Below are positions 948 through 54,349 of a stretch of DNA of 64,000 nt, in pieces. Source of the DNA: Nitrospirota bacterium (GTDB lineage: Bacteria; Nitrospirota; Nitrospiria; 2-01-FULL-66-17); contig JBFLXB010000012.1 of the NCBI GenBank assembly GCA_040757335.1, forward strand, positions 15,246 through 79,245, in the 5' to 3' direction. The notes beneath the pieces were generated by a model that saw only the letters and a list, made by a program, of their open reading frames with translations, ran no database searches and was not told the DNA's origin. The translations under genes and the position numbers were made by a program. Every line of letters begins with the position of its first letter. Position 1 is the stretch's first letter.

Positions 948-2045
948 TTACCGGCCGAGCGGGAGGATGATGCGGAAGGTGGTGAGACCCTTGTCGCTGG
1001 CGACAGACACCGCGCCGCCGTGAGCCTCCAGGATCTGTTTGACGAGAGACAGACCGATGCCTGCGCCGCCGTGCTCGCGGGAGCGGGACTTCTCCCCGCG
1101 ATAGAAGCGCTCGAAGATGAACGGCAGGTCGTGCGGCGGGATGCCCTCCCCGGTGTTGGACACTTCGATGACCGCGGCGGGCCCCTCCTGGCGGACGCGC
1201 ACGGTCACCTCGCCCCCAAGGGGCGTGTAGTGCAGCGCGTTCTCGAAAAGGTTATTGAGCACGCACACGAACTGGTCGTGATCCACTCGGACGATGGTGC
1301 CGTTTCCTGGATCGGTTGCCGACAGCCGGACGCCCTTTTGCGCGAAACGGGCTCGGAAGGGGTCGAGCGTCTGCGAGGTGAGCGCGCCCAAGTTCAGAGC
1401 GTCCAGGCGCAGGCGCTGGATCCCGGCGTCGGCGATGGCCAACTGGTGAAGGCCTTCGACCAGGCGGACCAGGCGTAGCACTTCCTCGTGCAGCGAGGCG
1501 ATCTGCTGCGGGGTGGCGGGTAAGACGCCGTCTCGCAGGGCTTCGAGGTAGCCGCGCATGTTGGTGAGCGGCGTTCGGAGCTCGTGCGCGACGTCTGCCA
1601 CCAGGTCTTTGCGCAGCTTTTCCACGCGCTGCAGGCTGCAGACCATCTGGTTGAAGGCATTTGCCAACTCGCCCACTTCGTCCCCGGGCACGGCCTGGAC
1701 GCGCTGGGAGTAGTCCCCTCCGGCGATGCGTCCCGCGATCGCGCCCATCCCGCGGATGGGGCGCAGGATCCGGCGCGTGAGGACCCAGCTTGCGGCGAGC
1801 GCCAAGGCCACGGCTCCGATGCTCGTCCAAATCAGCGTGGATGTCGTGGCGTGCAGGAACATCTGGTGCGGCGTGACCGGGTCGATGTGGTACTCCTTCA
1901 TCAACTGCATGAAGTAGTCGCCCGCGATGCGCTCGATCGCCACCCAGATGATCGCGATCACGGACGAGATGACCAGCAGGTGAATGCCCATCAGCTTCCA
2001 CAGCAAGCGCACGCGGCGCAGGCGGGGTGTGGGCGCGGCGGTCAT
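948..2045 (-). CDS. Sensor histidine kinase (TM-HAMP-HisKA-HATPase_c).
   Basis: N-terminal TM helices. H-box HELRTPLT, and N/G-boxes near the C-terminus (NLFENALHYT, GGAGIGLS). The ATGA overlap with the upstream response regulator stop indicates translational coupling. Confidence 0.85.
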   Translation of the reverse strand: MTAAPTPRLRRVRLLWKLMGIHLLVISSVIAIIWVAIERIAGDYFMQLMKEYHIDPVTPHQMFLHATTSTLIWTSIGAVALALAASWVLTRRILRPIRGMGAIAGRIAGGDYSQRVQAVPGDEVGELANAFNQMVCSLQRVEKLRKDLVADVAHELRTPLTNMRGYLEALRDGVLPATPQQIASLHEEVLRLVRLVEGLHQLAIADAGIQRLRLDALNLGALTSQTLDPFRARFAQKGVRLSATDPGNGTIVRVDHDQFVCVLNNLFENALHYTPLGGEVTVRVRQEGPAAVIEVSNTGEGIPPHDLPFIFERFYRGEKSRSREHGGAGIGLSLVKQILEAHGGAVSVASDKGLTTFRIILPLGR

Positions 2046-2749
2046 GCCCGGTCCTCGTCGCGAAACTTGTACCCGAGCCCGCGCACGGTCAACACGTACG
2101 TGGGTTGCGCGGGCTCGGGTTCGATCTTGTCGCGCAAGCGGCCGATGTGCACGTCCACGGTGCGGTCGAGCACGTGGACCGTGTCTTGCGTGTAGAGCGC
2201 ATCCAAGAGTTGCGCGCGCGAGAACACGTGGCCCGGCGAGCGCATCAGCTTGACCAGCAGGCGCAACTCGATGGCGGTGAGCGAGACGGGTTTGCCTTTC
2301 AGGGTGACTTTGGCTTTGGCTTCGTCCACCACCAGGTCGCCGGAGGCGAGGATCTTGGTCCCCCCGCTCTCGGGCTTGTGGGCGGTGCGCCGCAAGATCG
2401 CCTTCACGCGCGCCACCACCTCGCGGGGGGAAAACGGTTTGGTCACGTAGTCGTCGGCGCCGATGGAGAGGCCGACCAGTTTGTCCACTTCCTCCACTCG
2501 GGCCGTGAGCATCAGGATCGGCACCTCGGAGCTCTGGCGGATTCGACGACAGACCTCCAGCCCGTCCAGTTTGGGGATCATGAGGTCGAGGACGATGAGC
2601 GCAGGAGGGTGGCGTTGTGCAATCTCCACCGCTTGCGCCCCGTCGGCCGCCGACCGCGTCTGGAATCCTTCGCGTTCGAGGTAGACCTTGAGCAGGTTGG
2701 AGGTTTTGGGATCGTCCTCCACGATCAGGACCAACGGGTTCGTGCTCAC
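2042..2749 (-). CDS. OmpR/PhoB-family response regulator (REC plus winged-helix).
   Basis: MSTNPLVLIVEDDPK...DLMIPKLDG receiver, and a C-terminal trans_reg_C (...TYVLTVRGLGYKF). Confidence 0.9.
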   Translation of the reverse strand: MSTNPLVLIVEDDPKTSNLLKVYLEREGFQTRSAADGAQAVEIAQRHPPALIVLDLMIPKLDGLEVCRRIRQSSEVPILMLTARVEEVDKLVGLSIGADDYVTKPFSPREVVARVKAILRRTAHKPESGGTKILASGDLVVDEAKAKVTLKGKPVSLTAIELRLLVKLMRSPGHVFSRAQLLDALYTQDTVHVLDRTVDVHIGRLRDKIEPEPAQPTYVLTVRGLGYKFRDEDRA

Positions 2750-2758
2750 AGCACCATC

Positions 2759-3544
2759 CTAGACCGGCTGGGTCACGGTGAGATCACGTGCGTGTGACGT
2801 TTCTGCGACGGCGGCCGCTTCGTCGGCCGTCAAAGCAGCGGGGCGGAGTGCCACCCCGAAGAGGCGCTCCCAGCTCGCAACCAGTGTTTGGCAGACCTCG
2901 ACCGGCGTGACGCTTTCACGATGCGCGCCCAGTCCGGTGATGGACTCCAACGCGTCCGGCTCGGCCGGGAAGAACTGCGAGACCTCCCGCGGATCGTACC
3001 GCAACAGGATCGATCCGTGCTGAAGGAAGGCGGTGGGCCACCGGCGCTGAGCGCTGCCCACGACCTTTTTCCCGTCGAGGGTCAGTTCGTTTCGGGAGGT
3101 TGCGGCGAAACAGAGCGGAGACCCCGAGGCCTGGCGCACGCGTTCGGCATCGCGGTCGCGCCGCGCGACGCGAAAGCCGAGCCGGACCAGCGCGGCTTCC
3201 AGGGCAACCCCGATGGTCTCGTACGTGCCGCGAATGGTGGGAGGGAAACACGGGTGCGGAACAGGAGCGACCACGCTGTACGTCACTTCGTGCCGGTGGT
3301 AGACGGCGCGGCCGCCGGTGGTCCGCCTGACCACGGGAACGCCGGCGTCGCGGCAAAGGTCGAGGTCGACGACCTGATCCGGCCGTTGGAAATACCCCAG
3401 TGAAATGGCGGGTCGGTCCCACCCATAGAGGCGGAGCGTGGGGCCGCTCGCGCCCCGACGGCAGGAGTCGACCAATGCCTCGTCCACGGCCATGTTGTAG
3501 GAGGCGGGAGACGGAGGATCGAGGATCAATCGCCAAGGGTCCAC
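2759..3544 (-). CDS. Lipoate-protein ligase / octanoyltransferase family protein (BPL_LplA_LipB catalytic domain).
   Basis: Approx. 260-aa protein with a BPL/LPL-type catalytic domain signature (RLYGWDRPAISLGYFQ ... RRTTGGRAVYH ... K-containing motif LDGKKVVGSAQRR). Confidence 0.7.
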   Translation of the reverse strand: MDPWRLILDPPSPASYNMAVDEALVDSCRRGASGPTLRLYGWDRPAISLGYFQRPDQVVDLDLCRDAGVPVVRRTTGGRAVYHRHEVTYSVVAPVPHPCFPPTIRGTYETIGVALEAALVRLGFRVARRDRDAERVRQASGSPLCFAATSRNELTLDGKKVVGSAQRRWPTAFLQHGSILLRYDPREVSQFFPAEPDALESITGLGAHRESVTPVEVCQTLVASWERLFGVALRPAALTADEAAAVAETSHARDLTVTQPV

Positions 3545-5163: not shown

Positions 5164-5972
5164 GCCCCGTCAGCATTGCGCGCGCAGCGAAAGCCCACGT
5201 CGTTTAGTCGGCTGTTCGGGTCGGCGCCGAACCGGAAGCTTCCGCGCGCGTTATGTGCCAGGATCGCCTGGAGCGCGTCCGGTGCGAAGTGCCCGACGCC
5301 CGCCCATGACGACCCGCGCAGCACGCGGAGCGATGGGGTTCCGGCCGGCGCCGCGGCGGGGTTGCCGGGATACGGTTCATACCAATCCGCGGTCCACTCC
5401 CACACGTTTCCGACCAGATCGTGAACGCCCATCGGGCTCTGGCCGCTCGGGTAGCTCCCGACCGCGGTGGTTCCGCTTCTCGCGCCGCCAAGGTTGGCGC
5501 GGCTGAGTTCGAACCCGTCGCCCCACGGATACAGCCGGCCCTCGAAGCCGCGGGCGGCCTTTTCCCATTCGGCTTCCGTGGGCAGGCGTTTGCCCGCCCA
5601 CCGGCAATAGGTATCCGCGTCGTCCCACGTGACCGACGTCACGGGGTGCCGAGCCCGGCCCGGTGGGTGGCGCGCACCACGCCAGTCCGGCGGGGGCCGT
5701 CGCTGCGTGGCCTGCACGAACACCTGGTAATCCGCATTGGTGACCTCGAACTTGTCGAGGTAATACCCCGGAATGTTCGCGGTGTGAGCGGGGTGCTCGT
5801 CTTCGAACCACGGCTTGAGGATTCCATACTCCGCGGCCCGATGTTCGGTGTCCACCTGATCCGTCCCCATGACGAACGTCCCGCCGGGGATGTGGACCAT
5901 GCTGGGTGGAGTTGGGGTGCAGGCGATCGCGATGAACACCGAGAGGGCGAGGGGGAGAGTCACTTCGCGCAT
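5154..5972 (-). CDS. FGE-sulfatase (formylglycine-generating enzyme) family lipoprotein. It lacks the catalytic Cys pair.
   Basis: Start at the MREVTLPLALSVFIAIAC lipobox. Motifs WDDADTYCRWAGKRLPTEAEWEKAARG, ...LRGSSWA and ...GFRCA are present. There is no CxxxxC before RFG. The ORF-track N-terminal extension overlaps the upstream gene, so the true start was placed at 5972. Confidence 0.75.
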   Translation of the reverse strand: MREVTLPLALSVFIAIACTPTPPSMVHIPGGTFVMGTDQVDTEHRAAEYGILKPWFEDEHPAHTANIPGYYLDKFEVTNADYQVFVQATQRRPPPDWRGARHPPGRARHPVTSVTWDDADTYCRWAGKRLPTEAEWEKAARGFEGRLYPWGDGFELSRANLGGARSGTTAVGSYPSGQSPMGVHDLVGNVWEWTADWYEPYPGNPAAAPAGTPSLRVLRGSSWAGVGHFAPDALQAILAHNARGSFRFGADPNSRLNDVGFRCARNADGARG

Positions 5973-46314: not shown

Positions 46315-46429
46315 GAAATCCCCCCCTCCCCCCCTTTTTCAAAGGGGGGTAATGGGTAGCCGCTGACCAGAGGTCCTTCAAGGACCGTCAAGTCCCCCCC
46401 CTTTAACAAAGGGGGGAGGGGGGGATTTG
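46315..46429. repeat. Composite inverted repeat built from two inverted copies of the C6/G6 hairpin element, flanking the central palindrome GGTCCTTCAAGGACC.
   Basis: 46315..46349 is GAAATCCCCCCTCCCCCCCTTTTTCAAAGGGGGG. 46394..46429 is its reverse complement (CCCCCCCCTTTAACAAAGGGGGGAGGGGGGGATTTG). The centre is 46372..46386. Confidence 0.7.
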
Positions 46430-49258: not shown

Positions 49259-49321
49259 CGTGTCTCCGACGGAGAGTTGGCGGTACTGTACAAATCGCAC
49301 CCAAAAAATGTCAAGCTCATG

Positions 49322-49440
49322 AGCCTGCCGGGAATGGTCATCCGCTGCGTTGCCGCTGCGCATCCGCTGCTCACGTACGACCCAGTACGCTGCGCTGCGG
49401 TGCTCGCGGCGCCTTGCGGCTGACGCATTCCTGGCAGGCT
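49322..49440. mobile_element. MITE-like structured repeat, copy 1 (119 bp). TIRs AGCCTGCCGGGAATGGTCA / GACGCATTCCTGGCAGGCT.
   Basis: Imperfect terminal inverted repeats and an internal CGTAC...GTACG stem. Four related copies lie within 5 kb. Confidence 0.65.
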
Positions 49441-49675
49441 CCGCATTCGCGGTCGAACCTCAGATAAGTTGAATTTTAGCACCTCTTCTCCTATACTCCC
49501 TGCGCCGACGCGGGCAGCCTGAGGACGAAACAGAGAACTCCTGGCGCGGCACGGACAAGAGCTTGCCGACATTGACAGGTTGCTCAAAAAGCTCCAGCCG
49601 CAAGGCCGCAGCGAGGAGGAGACCGGAGCGTACTGGGTCGTACGTGAGGATCTCCGACGAGCGAGAACGCAGCGG

Positions 49676-50281
49676 ATGGACTTTTTCAGCAACCTGCTGA
49701 GGTCCGAGATGGATTCCACACTCTCATGGTCTGCCATGAAACGGAAGGTCACCGTAAAGACCGTGCCGGTCTATGCGTTGGCGATCGCGTTGGTGTGGCT
49801 GGCCCAGCCCGTGGCGCGGTGGTTCGCGGTCGGCGTGGTGATCGTGGTGCTCGGCGAGGCGATCCGCGTGTGGGCGGCGGGACACCTGTATAAAAACGAA
49901 CGCGTGGTGACCAGCGGTCCGTACGCTTACGTGAAGAATCCCTTGTACCTCGGCACGTTCCTCATCATGGTGGGCTTGTGCGTGATGGCTTCGAACTATG
50001 TCCTATTGGCGATCGGTGTGGCGGTGTTCGTGGCCTACTACGCGCCGTTCAAGCAGCGTCGGGAATCCGACCGGCTGCGGGAGCGGTTCGGGGACGCGTG
50101 GGTGCGGTACGACCATGACGTGCCGGCGTACCTGCCGCGCCTGACGCCTTACCCTGCTCGCGAAGACAAGCCCTGGCAATGGGCGGCTTTCATTCGAAAC
50201 GACGAACACGGCACGGTGCTGGCCGTGATGCTTGGGATCGTGGTGCTGGCCTGGAAGCTCTGGAGCGTCTCGGCCGCATGA
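49676..50281 (+). CDS. Isoprenylcysteine carboxyl methyltransferase (ICMT/PEMT) family membrane methyltransferase.
   Basis: GHLYKNERVVTSGPYAYVKNPLYLG...YYAPFKQRRESDRLRERFGDAW is the ICMT-family C-terminal motif. The start is uncertain (49580, 49676 or 49709). Confidence 0.6.
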   Translation: MDFFSNLLRSEMDSTLSWSAMKRKVTVKTVPVYALAIALVWLAQPVARWFAVGVVIVVLGEAIRVWAAGHLYKNERVVTSGPYAYVKNPLYLGTFLIMVGLCVMASNYVLLAIGVAVFVAYYAPFKQRRESDRLRERFGDAWVRYDHDVPAYLPRLTPYPAREDKPWQWAAFIRNDEHGTVLAVMLGIVVLAWKLWSVSAA

Positions 50282-50286
50282 CGGGG

Positions 50287-50408
50287 AGCCTGCCCGGGAA
50301 TGGTCACCTGCGTCGTTGCCGCTGCGCTTCCGCTCCTCACGTACGAACGAAGTACGCTCCGGTGCGGTACTCGCGGCGCCTAGCATCTGACCCATTCCTG
50401 GACAGGCT
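50287..50408. mobile_element. MITE-like structured repeat, copy 2 (122 bp).
   Basis: AGCCTGCCCGGGAATGGTCAC...GACCCATTCCTGGACAGGCT. Confidence 0.65.
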
Positions 50409-50418
50409 GTGTTGAAGG

Positions 50419-51105
50419 ATGTCGGCCGCGCTATCGCGCGAGGCGATCGCCCTTTCCAGCCCCCGGTACATCCGCCGCGGGCGGCCGTGGCAGCCCGACA
50501 TTCTGCTGGTGGACCACCAGGGGCGCAGCGTGATCGTGAAGGATTACGCGCCCCGCAAATGGATCTACCGCGTCGGGGTGGGGCTGTATTCGGTCTGGCG
50601 CGAAGCAACGATCTATGAATTGCTCGACGGGATTGCCGGTGTTCCACGGTTTGTGGGCCGGATCGACCGCTACGCGTTGGCGACCGAATACATCCCGGGG
50701 AAGGGAGCCGGAGAGGCGCAGCCCGGCGAGGTCGGTGACGCGTTTTTCGATCGACTTCACGAGACGGTGGAGGCCGTGCATCGCCGCGGGGTGGCGTTGT
50801 GCGATTTGCGGAACATGAACAACGTGTTGATCAGCGATGGCGGCGATCCGTACGTGATCGACTTTGCGGCGGCGATTCGACGGGGCGCCCGCTGGAACCT
50901 GTTGCTCAACGGCCTGTTTCGGGTCTTTGTGCAGGACGACCGCTTGGGGGTGATCAAACTCAAGCGACGGTTGGCGCCGTACCTGGTGACCACCGAGGAG
51001 TCCAAGCGATACCGCAAGGGGGTGTTCATGCAGTCGCAAGCCATTGCGCTGCGGAACTGGGGACGACGGTGGTTGAAACGGCTGGTGGGGATGAAGGCCG
51101 GTTAG
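50419..51105 (+). CDS. Lipopolysaccharide kinase (Kdo kinase KdkA / WaaP-like) family protein.
   Basis: Small atypical kinase with VIVKDY, CDLRNMNNVLIS and YVIDFAAA (HxD/N...DF), about 228 aa. Confidence 0.5.
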   Translation: MSAALSREAIALSSPRYIRRGRPWQPDILLVDHQGRSVIVKDYAPRKWIYRVGVGLYSVWREATIYELLDGIAGVPRFVGRIDRYALATEYIPGKGAGEAQPGEVGDAFFDRLHETVEAVHRRGVALCDLRNMNNVLISDGGDPYVIDFAAAIRRGARWNLLLNGLFRVFVQDDRLGVIKLKRRLAPYLVTTEESKRYRKGVFMQSQAIALRNWGRRWLKRLVGMKAG

Positions 51106-51118
51106 CCGAGGGAGAACC

Positions 51119-52672
51119 ATGCGACGGGCATTGATCAGCGTGTCGAACAAAGACGGCGTGGTGGATGTGGCCAAAGGTCTGGTCGCCTTGGGGTTCGAGA
51201 TCGTGTCGACGGGCGGGACGGCCAAACTCCTCCGCGAGCAGAAGGTGGCGGTGCGGGACGTCTCCGAGATCACCGGGTTTCCCGAGATGTTGGACGGTCG
51301 GGTCAAGACGCTGCATCCCAAGGTCCACGGTGGTCTGTTGGGGCGGCGCAGGCTTCCCGAGCACGTGGAGCAGATGAAGCGCCACGGGATCGACCCAATC
51401 GACGTGGTGATCGTGAACTTGTATCCCTTCGAAGCGACCATCAACAAGCCCGGCTGCACGTTCGACGAGGCGATCGAGAACATCGACATCGGCGGTCCCT
51501 CGATGTTGCGGTCGGCCGCCAAGAACTTCGAAGAGGTCGCCGTGGTGGTGGACCCCGCCGACTACCCGCGGCTGCTCGATGAGCTCAAACGACCGGAGGG
51601 CGTTAGCCGCGAGACCCGGATGTTGTTCGCGCGAAAGGTGTTCGCCCACACCTCGCGCTACGACGGCCTGATCGCGCTGTACCTTGATCGCGGCGCGCCG
51701 GCCGCGGAACCCGCGACCCGGTTTCCCCAGACGCTGGTGCTGCGGTACGAAAAACTCCAGAACCTTCGTTACGGGGAGAACCCGCACCAGCAGGCCGCGG
51801 TGTATCGCGACCCGTCCGTGACCGAGGCGAGCACGGCGCGGGCTCGCCAGCTCCACGGCAAGGAGATGTCGTACAACAATTTCTTGGACGCGCACGCCGC
51901 GCTCGAGTTGGTCAAAGAGTTCGACACGTGCGCGGTGGTGATCGTCAAGCACAACAACCCGTGCGGTGTCGCCCTGGGCGCCACGCCGGCCGAGGCCTAT
52001 CGCAAGGCCCGCGAGGGTGATCCCGTGTCCGCGTTCGGCGGGGTGGCGGCGTTCAACCGCCAGGTGGACGGCGAAACCGCGAAGGAAATCGGCTCCACGT
52101 TCATGGAGGTCATCGTGGCGCCGGGATTCGAGCCCGCCGCGGTCGAGGAACTCGGGCGCAAAAAGGCATTGCGCCTGCTCGACGTGGGGCCATTGAGCAC
52201 GGGGCCCGCCGAGAGCATGGACTGTCGCAAGATCGTCGGCGGCTTGCTCTATCAGGAACGCGATCTGGGGCGGATCGACGACGTCCGCAAGCTGCGGGTG
52301 GTGACCACGCGCACGCCCTCCGCCGAGGAGTTCGACGCGCTCGCGTTCGCGTGGAAGGTCGCCAAACACACCAAGTCCAACGCCATCGTGTACGCGCGGC
52401 CGGACCGGACCATCGGTGTGGGCGCGGGCCAGATGAGCCGGGTGGACTCGGTGAAGATCGGCGCGATGAAGGCCGTGTTGCCGCTCGCGGGTACGGTGAT
52501 CGCCTCCGACGCGTTTTTCCCGTTTCCCGACGGCATCAACGAAGCGGCCAAGGTGGGCGTGACCGCGGTCATTCAACCGGGCGGCTCGGTGAAGGACGAA
52601 GAGGTCGTGGCGGCGGCGAATCAGCATGGGATGGCGATGGTGCTCACGGGCATGCGCCACTTCCGGCACTGA
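51119..52672 (+). CDS. purH: Bifunctional AICAR transformylase / IMP cyclohydrolase.
   Basis: MRRALISVSNKDGVVDVAKGLVALGFEIVSTGGTAKLL..., 517 aa, colinear with PurH. Confidence 0.95.
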   Translation: MRRALISVSNKDGVVDVAKGLVALGFEIVSTGGTAKLLREQKVAVRDVSEITGFPEMLDGRVKTLHPKVHGGLLGRRRLPEHVEQMKRHGIDPIDVVIVNLYPFEATINKPGCTFDEAIENIDIGGPSMLRSAAKNFEEVAVVVDPADYPRLLDELKRPEGVSRETRMLFARKVFAHTSRYDGLIALYLDRGAPAAEPATRFPQTLVLRYEKLQNLRYGENPHQQAAVYRDPSVTEASTARARQLHGKEMSYNNFLDAHAALELVKEFDTCAVVIVKHNNPCGVALGATPAEAYRKAREGDPVSAFGGVAAFNRQVDGETAKEIGSTFMEVIVAPGFEPAAVEELGRKKALRLLDVGPLSTGPAESMDCRKIVGGLLYQERDLGRIDDVRKLRVVTTRTPSAEEFDALAFAWKVAKHTKSNAIVYARPDRTIGVGAGQMSRVDSVKIGAMKAVLPLAGTVIASDAFFPFPDGINEAAKVGVTAVIQPGGSVKDEEVVAAANQHGMAMVLTGMRHFRH

Positions 52673-52794
52673 GCCTGTCCATGAAGGGTCATCTGCGGCG
52701 TTGCCAGCTGCGCATTCGGTCCTCACGTACGACACAGTACGCTCCGGTCCGATGCTCGCCGGCGCCTTGCATCTGACGCCTTCCTGAACAGGCT
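52672..52794. mobile_element. MITE-like structured repeat, copy 3 (123 bp), abutting the purH stop.
   Basis: AGCCTGTCCATGAAGGGTCATC...GACGCCTTCCTGAACAGGCT. Confidence 0.65.
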
Positions 52795-52933
52795 CGCAGA
52801 GCAGGCGTAGCCTGCCTGCGGAAGGATTTCGAATCAACATCTTCTTCCTTCAACACAAGTCTTTCCCTCGCGGCCAGGGACGGCCGCTCTCTGCATTGGT
52901 CCCATCCGTCCCATTGGTCCCATCGGTCCTATC

Positions 52934-54214
52934 ATGAAGATTCTCGTCATCGGTGGGGGGGGGCGCGAGCACGCGTTGGTTTGGAAGCTCGCGCAGAGTC
53001 CGCGCGTCCGCAGAGTCTTTTGCGCGCCGGGTAACGGCGGCATCGCGGCGCAGGCGACTTGCCTGCCGATCGCGGTGGACGACGTCGACGGTCTTCTCGC
53101 TGTGGTGGAGCGCGAAGGCATCGACTTGACCATCGTGGGACCGGAGGCGGCGTTGGCGGCGGGGGTGGTGGATCGATTCGTCGCCGCAGGGCGGCGGATC
53201 GTGGGCCCGAGCCGAGAAGCCGCGCAACTCGAGACCAGCAAAGCATTCTCCAAAGCGTTTTTGCAGCGACACGGCATCCCCACCGCTAAGGCGGCGGTGG
53301 TCCGATCGTTGGACGAGGCCCTGGCCGTTCTGGATCTGCATCCGCTGCCGGTGGTGATCAAAGCCGACGGACTCGCCGCCGGGAAAGGCGTGGTGGTGAC
53401 GGCCGATCGCGAGGAGGCGCGCGGCGCGGTGCGCGCGATGATGGGCCAGCGGGTGTTCGGGACCGCCGGTGACACGGTGTTGATCGAAGAATGCCTTGAA
53501 GGGATGGAGGCCACGTGTATGGCGTTCTGCGACGGCCGATCGTTCGTCATGATGCCCGCGGCGCAGGATCACAAACGGGCGGAGGACGGCGATCGTGGAC
53601 CGAACACCGGCGGCATGGGCGCATACGCTCCCACCCCCTTCGTCACGGCCGACGTGTTGGCGGCGGTGCGGGCGCGGGTGTTTGAGCCTGCGCTGGCGGG
53701 GATGGCGGCGGAGGGACGGCCCTACCGCGGGATCCTGTACGCGGGACTGATGCTGACGCGGGATGGCCCCAAGGTGCTCGAGTTCAATTGCCGGTTCGGA
53801 GATCCCGAAACACAGGTGGTGCTGCCCCTGTTGGAGAGCGATCTGGTCGAGGTGGGCGAGGCCATCGTGGACGGGCGGTTGGACCGGCTTCCCGTGCGCT
53901 GGAGCAACCGTACCGCGGTCTGCGTGGTGGTGACCGCCAAGGGATACCCGGGCGACTACCAACGGGGCGACGTCATCTCGGGCCTCGACCAGAGTCTCGA
54001 TGACAGAACGTCCATCGTCTTCCACGCGGGCACGGCGCGTGAGGGCGGTCGTCTCGTGACCGCCGGAGGCCGCGTGTTGGGCGTGACGGGCGTGGACACG
54101 ACGCTGGCTGCGGCGCGCGAGCGGGCGTATGCCCGCGTTCGAACGATTGCGTTCGGAGGGGCGGCGTATCGCTCGGACATTGCAGCGCGGGCGGTGACGC
54201 CGTCGTCGGCGTAG
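52934..54214 (+). CDS. purD: Phosphoribosylamine-glycine ligase.
   Basis: MKILVIGGGGREHALVWKLAQS..., 426 aa, ATP-grasp. Confidence 0.95.
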   Translation: MKILVIGGGGREHALVWKLAQSPRVRRVFCAPGNGGIAAQATCLPIAVDDVDGLLAVVEREGIDLTIVGPEAALAAGVVDRFVAAGRRIVGPSREAAQLETSKAFSKAFLQRHGIPTAKAAVVRSLDEALAVLDLHPLPVVIKADGLAAGKGVVVTADREEARGAVRAMMGQRVFGTAGDTVLIEECLEGMEATCMAFCDGRSFVMMPAAQDHKRAEDGDRGPNTGGMGAYAPTPFVTADVLAAVRARVFEPALAGMAAEGRPYRGILYAGLMLTRDGPKVLEFNCRFGDPETQVVLPLLESDLVEVGEAIVDGRLDRLPVRWSNRTAVCVVVTAKGYPGDYQRGDVISGLDQSLDDRTSIVFHAGTAREGGRLVTAGGRVLGVTGVDTTLAAARERAYARVRTIAFGGAAYRSDIAARAVTPSSA

Positions 54215-54349
54215 CCCGGCCATGAAGGGTCATCTGCTGCGTTGTCGCTGCGCTTCCGGTCCTCACGGTTTCGTAGGGGCGTATTGCAATACGCCCCTAC
54301 AGGTCCGGTGCTCGCTCCGCCTTGCAGCTGACGCCTTCCTGACCAGGCT
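54213..54349. mobile_element. MITE-like structured repeat, copy 4 (137 bp). Its centre is replaced by the 28-bp perfect palindrome GTAGGGGCGTATTGCAATACGCCCCTAC (54273..54300).
   Basis: AGCCCGGCCATGAAGGGTCATC...GACGCCTTCCTGACCAGGCT. The CGTAC...GTACG core is swapped for a new palindrome. Confidence 0.65.

Follow-up and report, generated by a model that had tools for sequence, protein, structure and literature searches.

Hairpin-forming mobile elements at gene ends in a Nitrospirota genome, probably moved in trans by IS5/IS1182-group transposases

We analysed a stretch of 64 kb from a Nitrospirota bacterium (contig JBFLXB010000012.1; hereafter the window), which carries five copies (c1-c5) of a hairpin-forming element in and around the spacers between lonN-like, ICMT, small kinase-like, purH, purD and PAP2 genes. 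The element is mobile DNA. It probably represents a family of non-coding miniature transposable elements with inverted repeats (MITEs) of ~125-150 bp that have no transposase of their own and depend for their movement on DDE transposases of the IS5/IS1182 group acting in trans. As selfish DNA it is of an ordinary kind; what stands out is the unusual degree of conservation of its hairpin core. To the extent of the libraries searched, the family is new as a family, while its kind, a MITE with IS5/IS1182-type ends, is well known.

An earlier note on this DNA had described four copies of a MITE-like element. Those four are real and lie where the note had placed them, with limits that we refined (table 1), and a fifth copy lies inverted in the ICMT 5' leader. 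A covariance model (CM) trained on the five copies and run over the 64-kb window with filters off gave them 106-139 bits (E 1e-21 to 1e-28). An unrelated match came next, at 24.7 bits, and this search detected no further family members in the window. The copies are 121-137 bp long and all lie outside conserved gene bodies. As the note had predicted, each forms one long imperfect hairpin of ~125 nt, with folding energies of -60 to -82 kcal/mol and z-scores of -3.5 to -7.3 against dinucleotide shuffles, none of which (0/200) folded as well. An internal CGTAC-N6-GTACG stem had been ascribed to all copies; it is found in all except c4, where a perfect palindrome, GTAGGGGCGTATTGCAATACGCCCCTAC (GTAG...CTAC), takes its place at the apex. 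This palindrome occurs once in the window, and a syntenic locus, L121 (see below), has two copies with this module in their apex. Four copies (c1-c4) are of one end type, A. The fifth, c5, is of another type, B: its terminal stem (CAGGTTGCTCAAAAAG...CTTTTTCAGCAACCTG) is wholly unlike that of c1-c4 in sequence and still pairs, and its interior is the reverse complement of theirs, that is, the same core.

Table 1. Copies of the element and adjoining features in the window.
Feature	Position	Strand	Description
Promoter-like site	49314..49285	-	lonN-like gene; divergent from the next site, with c1 between them
c1	49321-49441	+	A-type hairpin element, lonN/ICMT spacer; CM 139.1 bits; fold -81.6 kcal/mol, z -7.3
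Candidate decayed c1 tail	49443..49466	+	Ends in TA (49465-49466); by analogy with the tails of intact units
Promoter-like site	49469..49497	+	ICMT operon
c5	49576-49696	-	B-type, inverted, in ICMT leader; CM 107.8 bits on the - strand; fold -60.2 kcal/mol, z -5.6
c2	50287-50408	+	A-type, between ICMT and small kinase-like gene; CM 127.5 bits
c3	52671-52795	+	A-type, after purH; CM 133.1 bits
Short hairpin GCAGGCGTAGCCTGC	52796..52825	+	Directly 3' of c3; kept in L121 and L123, differs in L122
c4	54213-54349	+	A-type, purD/PAP2 gap; CM 106 bits
Apical palindrome of c4	54273-54300	+	GTAGGGGCGTATTGCAATACGCCCCTAC

The copies stand close to gene ends. The purH TGA (52670-52672) overlaps c3, its GA being the first two stem bases. 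This abutment had been noted as a single case, and it is not the only one: the purD TAG (54212-54214) overlaps c4, whose first two bases are the AG of the stop, and the ICMT TGA lies 5 nt ahead of the first base of c2. The claim that every intergenic gap of the cluster is occupied did not hold, as the 13-nt kinase/purH gap (51105-51119) contains no copy. c5 lies 12 nt from the ICMT ATG (49709).

Evidence for mobility comes from three syntenic loci of related genomes (L121, L122 and L123), reached via PurD homologs with 82-85% PurD identity. Gene order from AhpC through PMT is identical in these loci and in the window. The copy after purH (c3) is present in all four. At the lonN/ICMT site (c1), L121 has a copy, L122 has one with the apex deleted and L123 retains a left-arm stump of ~30 nt. 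The ICMT/kinase copy (c2) is shared by the window and L121, while the site is empty in L122 (11 nt from stop to ATG) and L123 (12 nt). The purD/PAP2 copy (c4) is present in L121 with nested insertions, and L122 (ATGA overlap) and L123 (21-nt gap) have nothing inserted there. The ICMT leader copy (c5) is absent from all three relatives. Clean presence or absence at the ICMT/kinase, purD/PAP2 and c5 sites shows that the element is mobile DNA, and that its insertions have split formerly overlapping or tightly coupled genes such as ICMT/kinase and purD/PAP2. c1 and c3 were in place before the four genomes diverged, only the closest relative also has c2 and c4, and c5 is specific to the window and is the youngest copy. 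This pattern indicates that the cluster accrued over several speciation events and argues against the earlier suggestion of a single burst of local proliferation.

Among the purH-site copies of the four genomes, 9/40 pairs differ on both sides. These differences are whole allelic blocks that are also seen in dispersed copies (for example GCCGC/GCGGC versus GTCGC/GCTCC), and we therefore discounted compensatory change at this site as evidence of selection. The blocks point to gene conversion or replacement rather than selected compensatory mutation.

We then compared the ends of the element with insertion sequences (IS). The A-type left end of c1-c4 reads GAGCCTG[T/C]CC..., and the B-type end of c5 reads CAGG[C/T]TGCTGAAAAAG. 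In the best preserved genomes, an intact A-type unit measures 150-152 bp and consists, from C-TA to TA-G, of GGAGCCTGTCC, the hairpin, AACAGGCTCC, AACACCCnAATACTC and GGACACACTCC, with a tail of ~29 nt. The terminal inverted repeats (TIRs) of the earlier description need to be redrawn accordingly: inverted repeats do bound the elements, but those it defined are the base of the hairpin, and the functional right end lies in the tail beyond. Among 24 intact A-type units, TA flanks the left side of 20, the right side of 12 and both sides of 10 (background TA 1.9%); the left flank is cTA in 16 and the right flank TAg in 10. At the very end of the tail, 18 bp agree at 17/18 positions with the terminus of a 1613-bp IS1182-family element of Alicyclobacillus, which has CTAG/CTAG flanks. 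The B-type family consensus, CAGGCTGCTGAAAAAG, is identical (16/16) to the TIR of a 1311-bp IS5-family element of Bradyrhizobium ottawaense with TTAG/TTAG flanks, and agrees at 15/16 positions with a 1526-bp element in Microvirga flanked by CTAG/CTAG; the two terminal repeats of c5 match the 16-bp IS5-family TIR at 15/16 and 14/16 positions. Both the Bradyrhizobium and the Microvirga element encode DUF772 and DDE_Tnp_1 transposases (Pfam). The Bradyrhizobium enzyme is WP_038975063.1, and that of the Alicyclobacillus IS1182 element is WP_262927026.1. The same B-type TIR and 4-bp duplications also bound MITEs with unrelated interiors in Paracoccus and Phaeobacter, the Phaeobacter MITE having the non-palindromic flanks TTAG/TTAG. 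IS5 elements are described as producing YTAR target duplications (PMC10359306). The designation MITE-like is borne out by these results: the copies are non-coding, repeated, bounded by inverted repeats and present or absent at orthologous sites, and their ends match real IS5/IS1182-family elements.

Within the window, possible traces of target duplications, which the note had proposed to look for, are confined to c5 and c4. c5 is flanked by TTGA (49572-49575) and CTGA (49697-49700), which agree at 3/4 positions, and its 16-bp terminal repeats are complementary at 15/16. c4 has TA on its left and tTA beyond its right end. Since c1-c4 have no recognisable ~29-nt tail, we regard them as old insertions, shared with related species, that have probably lost the tail and become immobile relics. 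The segment that follows c1 (table 1) has weak similarity to the tails of intact units and is at most a candidate decayed tail, and the short hairpin directly 3' of c3 could be a remnant of a tail or TIR.

Gene context across the family was called by a crude gene finder. It placed a co-oriented gene upstream of the hairpin in 83 cases, in most of which the distance from the stop of that gene to the hairpin's 5' end is within about -6 to +13 nt; next to convergent genes, the 3' end lies 20-50 nt from the stop, a distance equal to the tail length. A stop triplet occupies positions -3 to -1 of the stem in 44/110 copies, against a background of ~2% per position. Element-adjacent stops are enriched in TAG (53% versus 28% background) and in YTAR context (36% versus 16%; odds ratio 3.1, p = 6e-4). 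We attribute the abutment to the target itself, because YTAR contains TAA or TAG.

In the mechanism that we propose, IS5/IS1182-group transposases would cut at the short terminal inverted repeats and insert the element at a 4-bp YTAR site (CTAG, TTAG or CTAA), which would be duplicated. As YTAR is rare in these GC-rich genomes and holds TAA or TAG, surviving insertions would often fall in gene stop codons. The left copy of the duplication would keep the stop codon intact, and the hairpin would consequently start exactly at the stop. Such a stop-preserving insertion is seen cleanly in the purD copy of L121, which is flanked by TA on both sides (TA, G...CC, TA) and is followed, directly after the second TA, by the GTG start of PAP2. 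This offers a simple account of small repeats at stop codons in GC-rich genomes. A matching transposase would be expected to exist, or to have existed, in this lineage. Copies transcribed within operons would be at most passive RNA hairpins, not selected as regulatory RNA, which may affect mRNA processing or uncouple translation.

The family extends well beyond the window. A scan seeded with the apex pattern, using one genome per species, yielded more than 120 CM matches across at least 120 loci, spread over many unrelated loci and phyla. Full-length copies occur in at least nine Nitrospirota assemblies, including Ca. Manganitrophus and Manganitrophaceae, and lower-scoring, diverged copies in Mesorhizobium, Rickettsiales, Beta- and Gammaproteobacteria, Myxococcales, Syntrophales, Desulfovibrionaceae, Desulforudis, Pelotomaculum, other Bacillota and Fibrobacter. 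One Mesorhizobium copy matches 35 plasmid or chromid records from Sphingobium, Shinella, Agrobacterium, Phyllobacterium and others, and copies of this type are intergenic in alphaproteobacterial genomes as well. Rfam gave no match at gathering score in the window, and permissive searches returned nothing over the Nitrospirota or Mesorhizobium copies. A literature search with the apex and terminal-repeat sequence strings found nothing relevant.

Alignment of 92 sequences revealed that 86% of cells pair, compared with 65% in column shuffles and 33-39% in slid controls, and that 39/46 pairs change on both sides. The bulk of this covariation lies between a few subfamilies with wholly different outer stems (GGAGCCTGTCCATGAA, CAGGCTGCTGAAAAAG and CCTGACCGCCGATAAG). 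Complementary termini of 6-21 bp are found in nearly all copies. An apical core of ~50 nt is 90-96% identical between Nitrospirota, Rickettsiales and Myxococcales copies, whose terminal repeats differ, and is identical to the Mesorhizobium core at 48/51 positions of the alignment. This conservation is partly a matter of ascertainment, as the scan was seeded with the apex, yet ~30 of the identical bases fall beyond the seed. Other small modules often take the place of the apex or break it up, among them the GTAG palindrome, a ~65-nt GGCGCCAC...GTGGCGCC module and a GGAAGTCCCCGAAGGGGG module. A recurrent module of ~65 nt (GGCCGCCTCACCG..CTCGGCGGCGCTCGTGGCTTGGCGCCACTTCTTCGTGGCGCCACTCGCC) is found just 5' of the apex in L019, L032, L052, L053, L082, L088, L103 and L110; in L088 it is present twice in tandem. 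CCTCAC is repeated at the junction of the module.

Several observations count against transposition by IS5/IS1182-group enzymes. A tblastn search with both IS transposases gave no homologs, either in the window, where no exhaustive scan of the open reading frames (ORFs) was made, or across ~1 Mb of fetched related loci; the absence of a transposase stated by the earlier note stands to that extent and fits a non-autonomous element. As candidates for the parent IS that it had suggested looking for, elements with matching ends were found, all of them in other phyla (Alphaproteobacteria and Bacillota plasmids). The Alicyclobacillus match covers 18 bp only, with a BLAST E-value of 3, and draws its weight from falling exactly at the terminus and from the CTAG flanks. 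Around c1-c3 a clean duplication is lacking (flanks CA/.., GG/GT and TG/CG), and ten of the adjacent stops are CTGA rather than YTAR. Of the 72 copies in tandem contexts, 53 point in the direction of transcription and 19 do not (p = 8e-5), a bias for which the insertion mechanism alone offers no explanation. Finally, it is the internal apex and not the ends that is best conserved across phyla, the reverse of what a purely transposase-driven spread would predict.

Attempts to find a parent by other routes gave little. The A-type left end had no match among plasmids, and a search for TA-flanked inverted repeats 0.7-3 kb apart in the fetched loci and the window returned only irrelevant pairs, one of them around the Y1_Tnp gene of L065 and one around an acyltransferase of the window. 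An isolated tail-like match in L099 proved to be the 3' end of an ordinary gene.

We considered whether the hairpin could serve mainly as a structured RNA with a function of its own, for instance in stabilising mRNA, in offering RNase III/E a processing site or in modulating translation termination, and be selected in operon spacers, using mobility only to spread. The excess of pairing over shuffles, the many doubly changed pairs, the conserved apical core and the operon co-orientation would all fit such a role, and a hairpin that starts at the stop codon could affect terminating ribosomes. Much of the covariation, however, lies between subfamilies and so reflects few independent events, and the allelic blocks at the purH site are shared with dispersed copies. 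Stem mismatches comprise 222 G-U and 199 A-C pairs; because G-U is about as frequent as A-C, neither strand is favoured as RNA. c1, lying between two divergent promoter-like sites, is likely untranscribed from either. Added to this, many copies have the apex swapped or interrupted by small modules, close relatives have empty sites in an otherwise unchanged operon, and Rfam has no match. We therefore judge a primary RNA function to be distinctly unlikely. The suggestion of the earlier note that the copies are transcriptional terminators or insulators of this operon fares worse. Four of five consecutive gaps are filled in one orientation by GC-rich, stable hairpins, which would suit terminators or integron attC-like sites between gene cassettes. 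But none of the five copies is followed by a U-tract, and a scan for terminator-like structures gave about as many as in shuffled sequence and none at the 3' end of a copy in its own orientation; c1, between divergent promoter-like sites, is also poorly placed for this role. Copies of the family are scattered through many unrelated loci and several phyla, the neighbours are housekeeping genes whose synteny is kept with or without the element, and the boundaries have no GTTRRRY-type boxes (an integrase was not searched for). Both versions can practically be set aside.

Two other routes of transposition were weighed. The element could be a REPIN-like single-stranded DNA (ssDNA) hairpin, recognised by its shape and moved without target duplication by a Y1 HUH transposase (RAYT/IS200-type). 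In favour of this, the hairpin is long and imperfect, its apex being conserved and its stem variable, and c1-c3 lack a clean duplication; a related Nitrospirota metagenome-assembled genome (MAG; L065) encodes a protein with Y1_Tnp and Bac_DnaA_C domains, and the c4 apex contains a GTAG-tagged palindrome. The ends of the main element, on the other hand, carry no GTAG or CGTC tag (GAGCC... and CAGGC...), the matches to both end types are DDE-type insertion sequences that have 4-bp duplications, TA in CTAG context flanks the intact units, and related MITEs have the non-palindromic TTAG/TTAG duplication. This makes a REPIN-like origin very unlikely. The TA flanks were at first read as those of an IS630/Tc1-mariner-type MITE that duplicates TA, preferentially inside CTAG, a behaviour reported for IS630 and ISY100 (PMC2170065 and Tenzen 1990/1991, as referenced there). 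This reading was dropped once IS5/IS1182-type IS with the same ends and 4-bp duplications were found, and we now hold it to be very unlikely as well: the IS bearing these ends encode DUF772 and DDE_Tnp_1 or are annotated as IS1182 family, not as IS630-type, and the Bradyrhizobium element and the Phaeobacter MITE both have TTAG/TTAG flanks, a non-palindromic duplication of 4 bp, so that a 2-bp reading would leave the terminal pair mismatched.

With IS5/IS1182-group transposition as the preferred reading, the conserved structured interior is the one feature worth follow-up: its conservation is not explained by transposition alone, and neither is co-orientation with transcription. One tentative proposal, which we consider unlikely, is that the core is not junk but a functional cargo module carried among transposon end types and phyla. 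With similar reserve, this cargo could be delimited to ~50-75 nt comprising the apical CGTAC-GAnnnA-GTACG stem, pyrimidine-rich internal loops and the CATCTGC/GCGTTG...GCCTTGCATCTG boxes. As a structured RNA or ssDNA hairpin, it might make insertions in operon spacers harmless or useful, for instance by processing or stabilising transcripts at the stop; alternatively, it might be recognised by a conserved protein. If correct, this would account for conservation of the core above that of the transposase-binding ends, for retention of the purH-site copy in four species and for the co-orientation, and the family would illustrate how transposon ends can spread a structured module.

The family shares with IS5/IS1182-derived MITEs its small size, lack of coding capacity, bounding TIRs, multiple copies, presence or absence at orthologous sites, ends that match full-length elements and flanks in CTAG/TTAG context. 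It differs from the IS themselves in that only the terminal 16-30 bp are in common, the interior being an unrelated, highly structured hairpin. Unlike such MITEs, one core is carried on at least three end types and across phyla, which is unusual; the 3' arm of the A-type hairpin is an extra internal inverted left end, the true right end lying in the tail; and no autonomous partner was found in the host lineage (the window and ~1 Mb of related loci). ERIC (enterobacterial repetitive intergenic consensus, ~127 bp) and the Correia/NEMIS elements of Neisseria are imperfect palindromes of ~100-155 bp that are intergenic or intercistronic, are co-transcribed and form long RNA hairpins, Correia elements being inserted at TA targets. 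By such descriptions they resemble the present family in size, shape and location; they are not known to be related to it in sequence, and the host phyla differ. REP/REPIN sequences are likewise hairpin-forming, dispersed and intergenic, with compensatory stem change and BIME-like nested mosaics. In contrast to their doublets of 20-40-nt palindromes, the present element is a single hairpin of 125-150 nt, and it has DDE-type IS ends with 4-bp duplications instead of a GTAG/CGTC end tag. Compared by description only, the alphaproteobacterial relatives of the core also resemble the RIME (Rhizobium-specific intergenic mosaic elements) and Sm-repeats of rhizobia, being intergenic palindromic repeats of ~125 nt; they lie in replicons of Mesorhizobium, Shinella, Agrobacterium, Ensifer, Rhizobium, Phyllobacterium and Sphingobium, in records that carry no repeat annotation. 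In these genomes and in those of Nitrospirota (Manganitrophaceae-related), the hairpins are liable to be annotated as terminators, small RNAs or riboswitch-like leaders.

Other repeats and structures were observed alongside the family. The GTAGGGGCGTATTGCAATACGCCCCTAC palindrome (also at ~5783-5810 and 7394-7421 of L121) resembles a REP with a GTAG tag, suggesting that these genomes harbour a second repeat system, of RAYT type. The Y1_Tnp (IS200-like) and Bac_DnaA_C protein of L065 has 333 aa and is encoded at 1840-2841 (-) of Nitrospirota MAG041 (JBMOMD010000036.1); its gene is bounded by an AT-rich inverted repeat of ~20 bp and lies 4.3 kb from a family copy. Between two glycosyltransferase genes of the window, at 46315-46429, stands another hairpin of ~115 nt with poly-C/poly-G arms (AAATCCCCCCCTCCCCCCC...GGGGGGAGGGGGGGATTT; -80 to -87 kcal/mol). 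GGAAGTCCCCGAAGGGGG modules akin to it are nested in the 3' arm of many family copies, in L046, L081, L082, L106, L121 and L122. A perfect stem of ~15 bp at 2070-2121 (CCCGAGCCCGCGCAC...GCGCGGGCTCGGG; -37 kcal/mol) gave a weak CM match and is unrelated to the family. In L094, at ~7658 (-), a solo left terminal repeat (TA followed by GGAGCCTGTCCATGAGCGGCC) contains an ATG that opens an ORF with a lipoprotein-like signal peptide; this end of the repeat may have been co-opted as a start region.

Among the neighbouring genes, the product of 50419-51105, labelled a lipopolysaccharide kinase in the earlier note, has no Pfam match and shows weak NCBIfam similarity, far under the cut-offs, to small Ser/Thr kinases and Kdo kinase. 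The methyltransferase beside it weakly resembles the lipid A 1-phosphate methyltransferase LmtA. The purD leader (52860-52933), which has no Rfam match, is kept in the four species and consists of a hairpin, GCGGCCAGGGACGGCCGC, followed by 3-4 tandem 9-mers (CATTGGTCC / CATCCGTCC) extending as far as the purD ATG; it may represent a cis-regulatory leader that has gone unrecognised.

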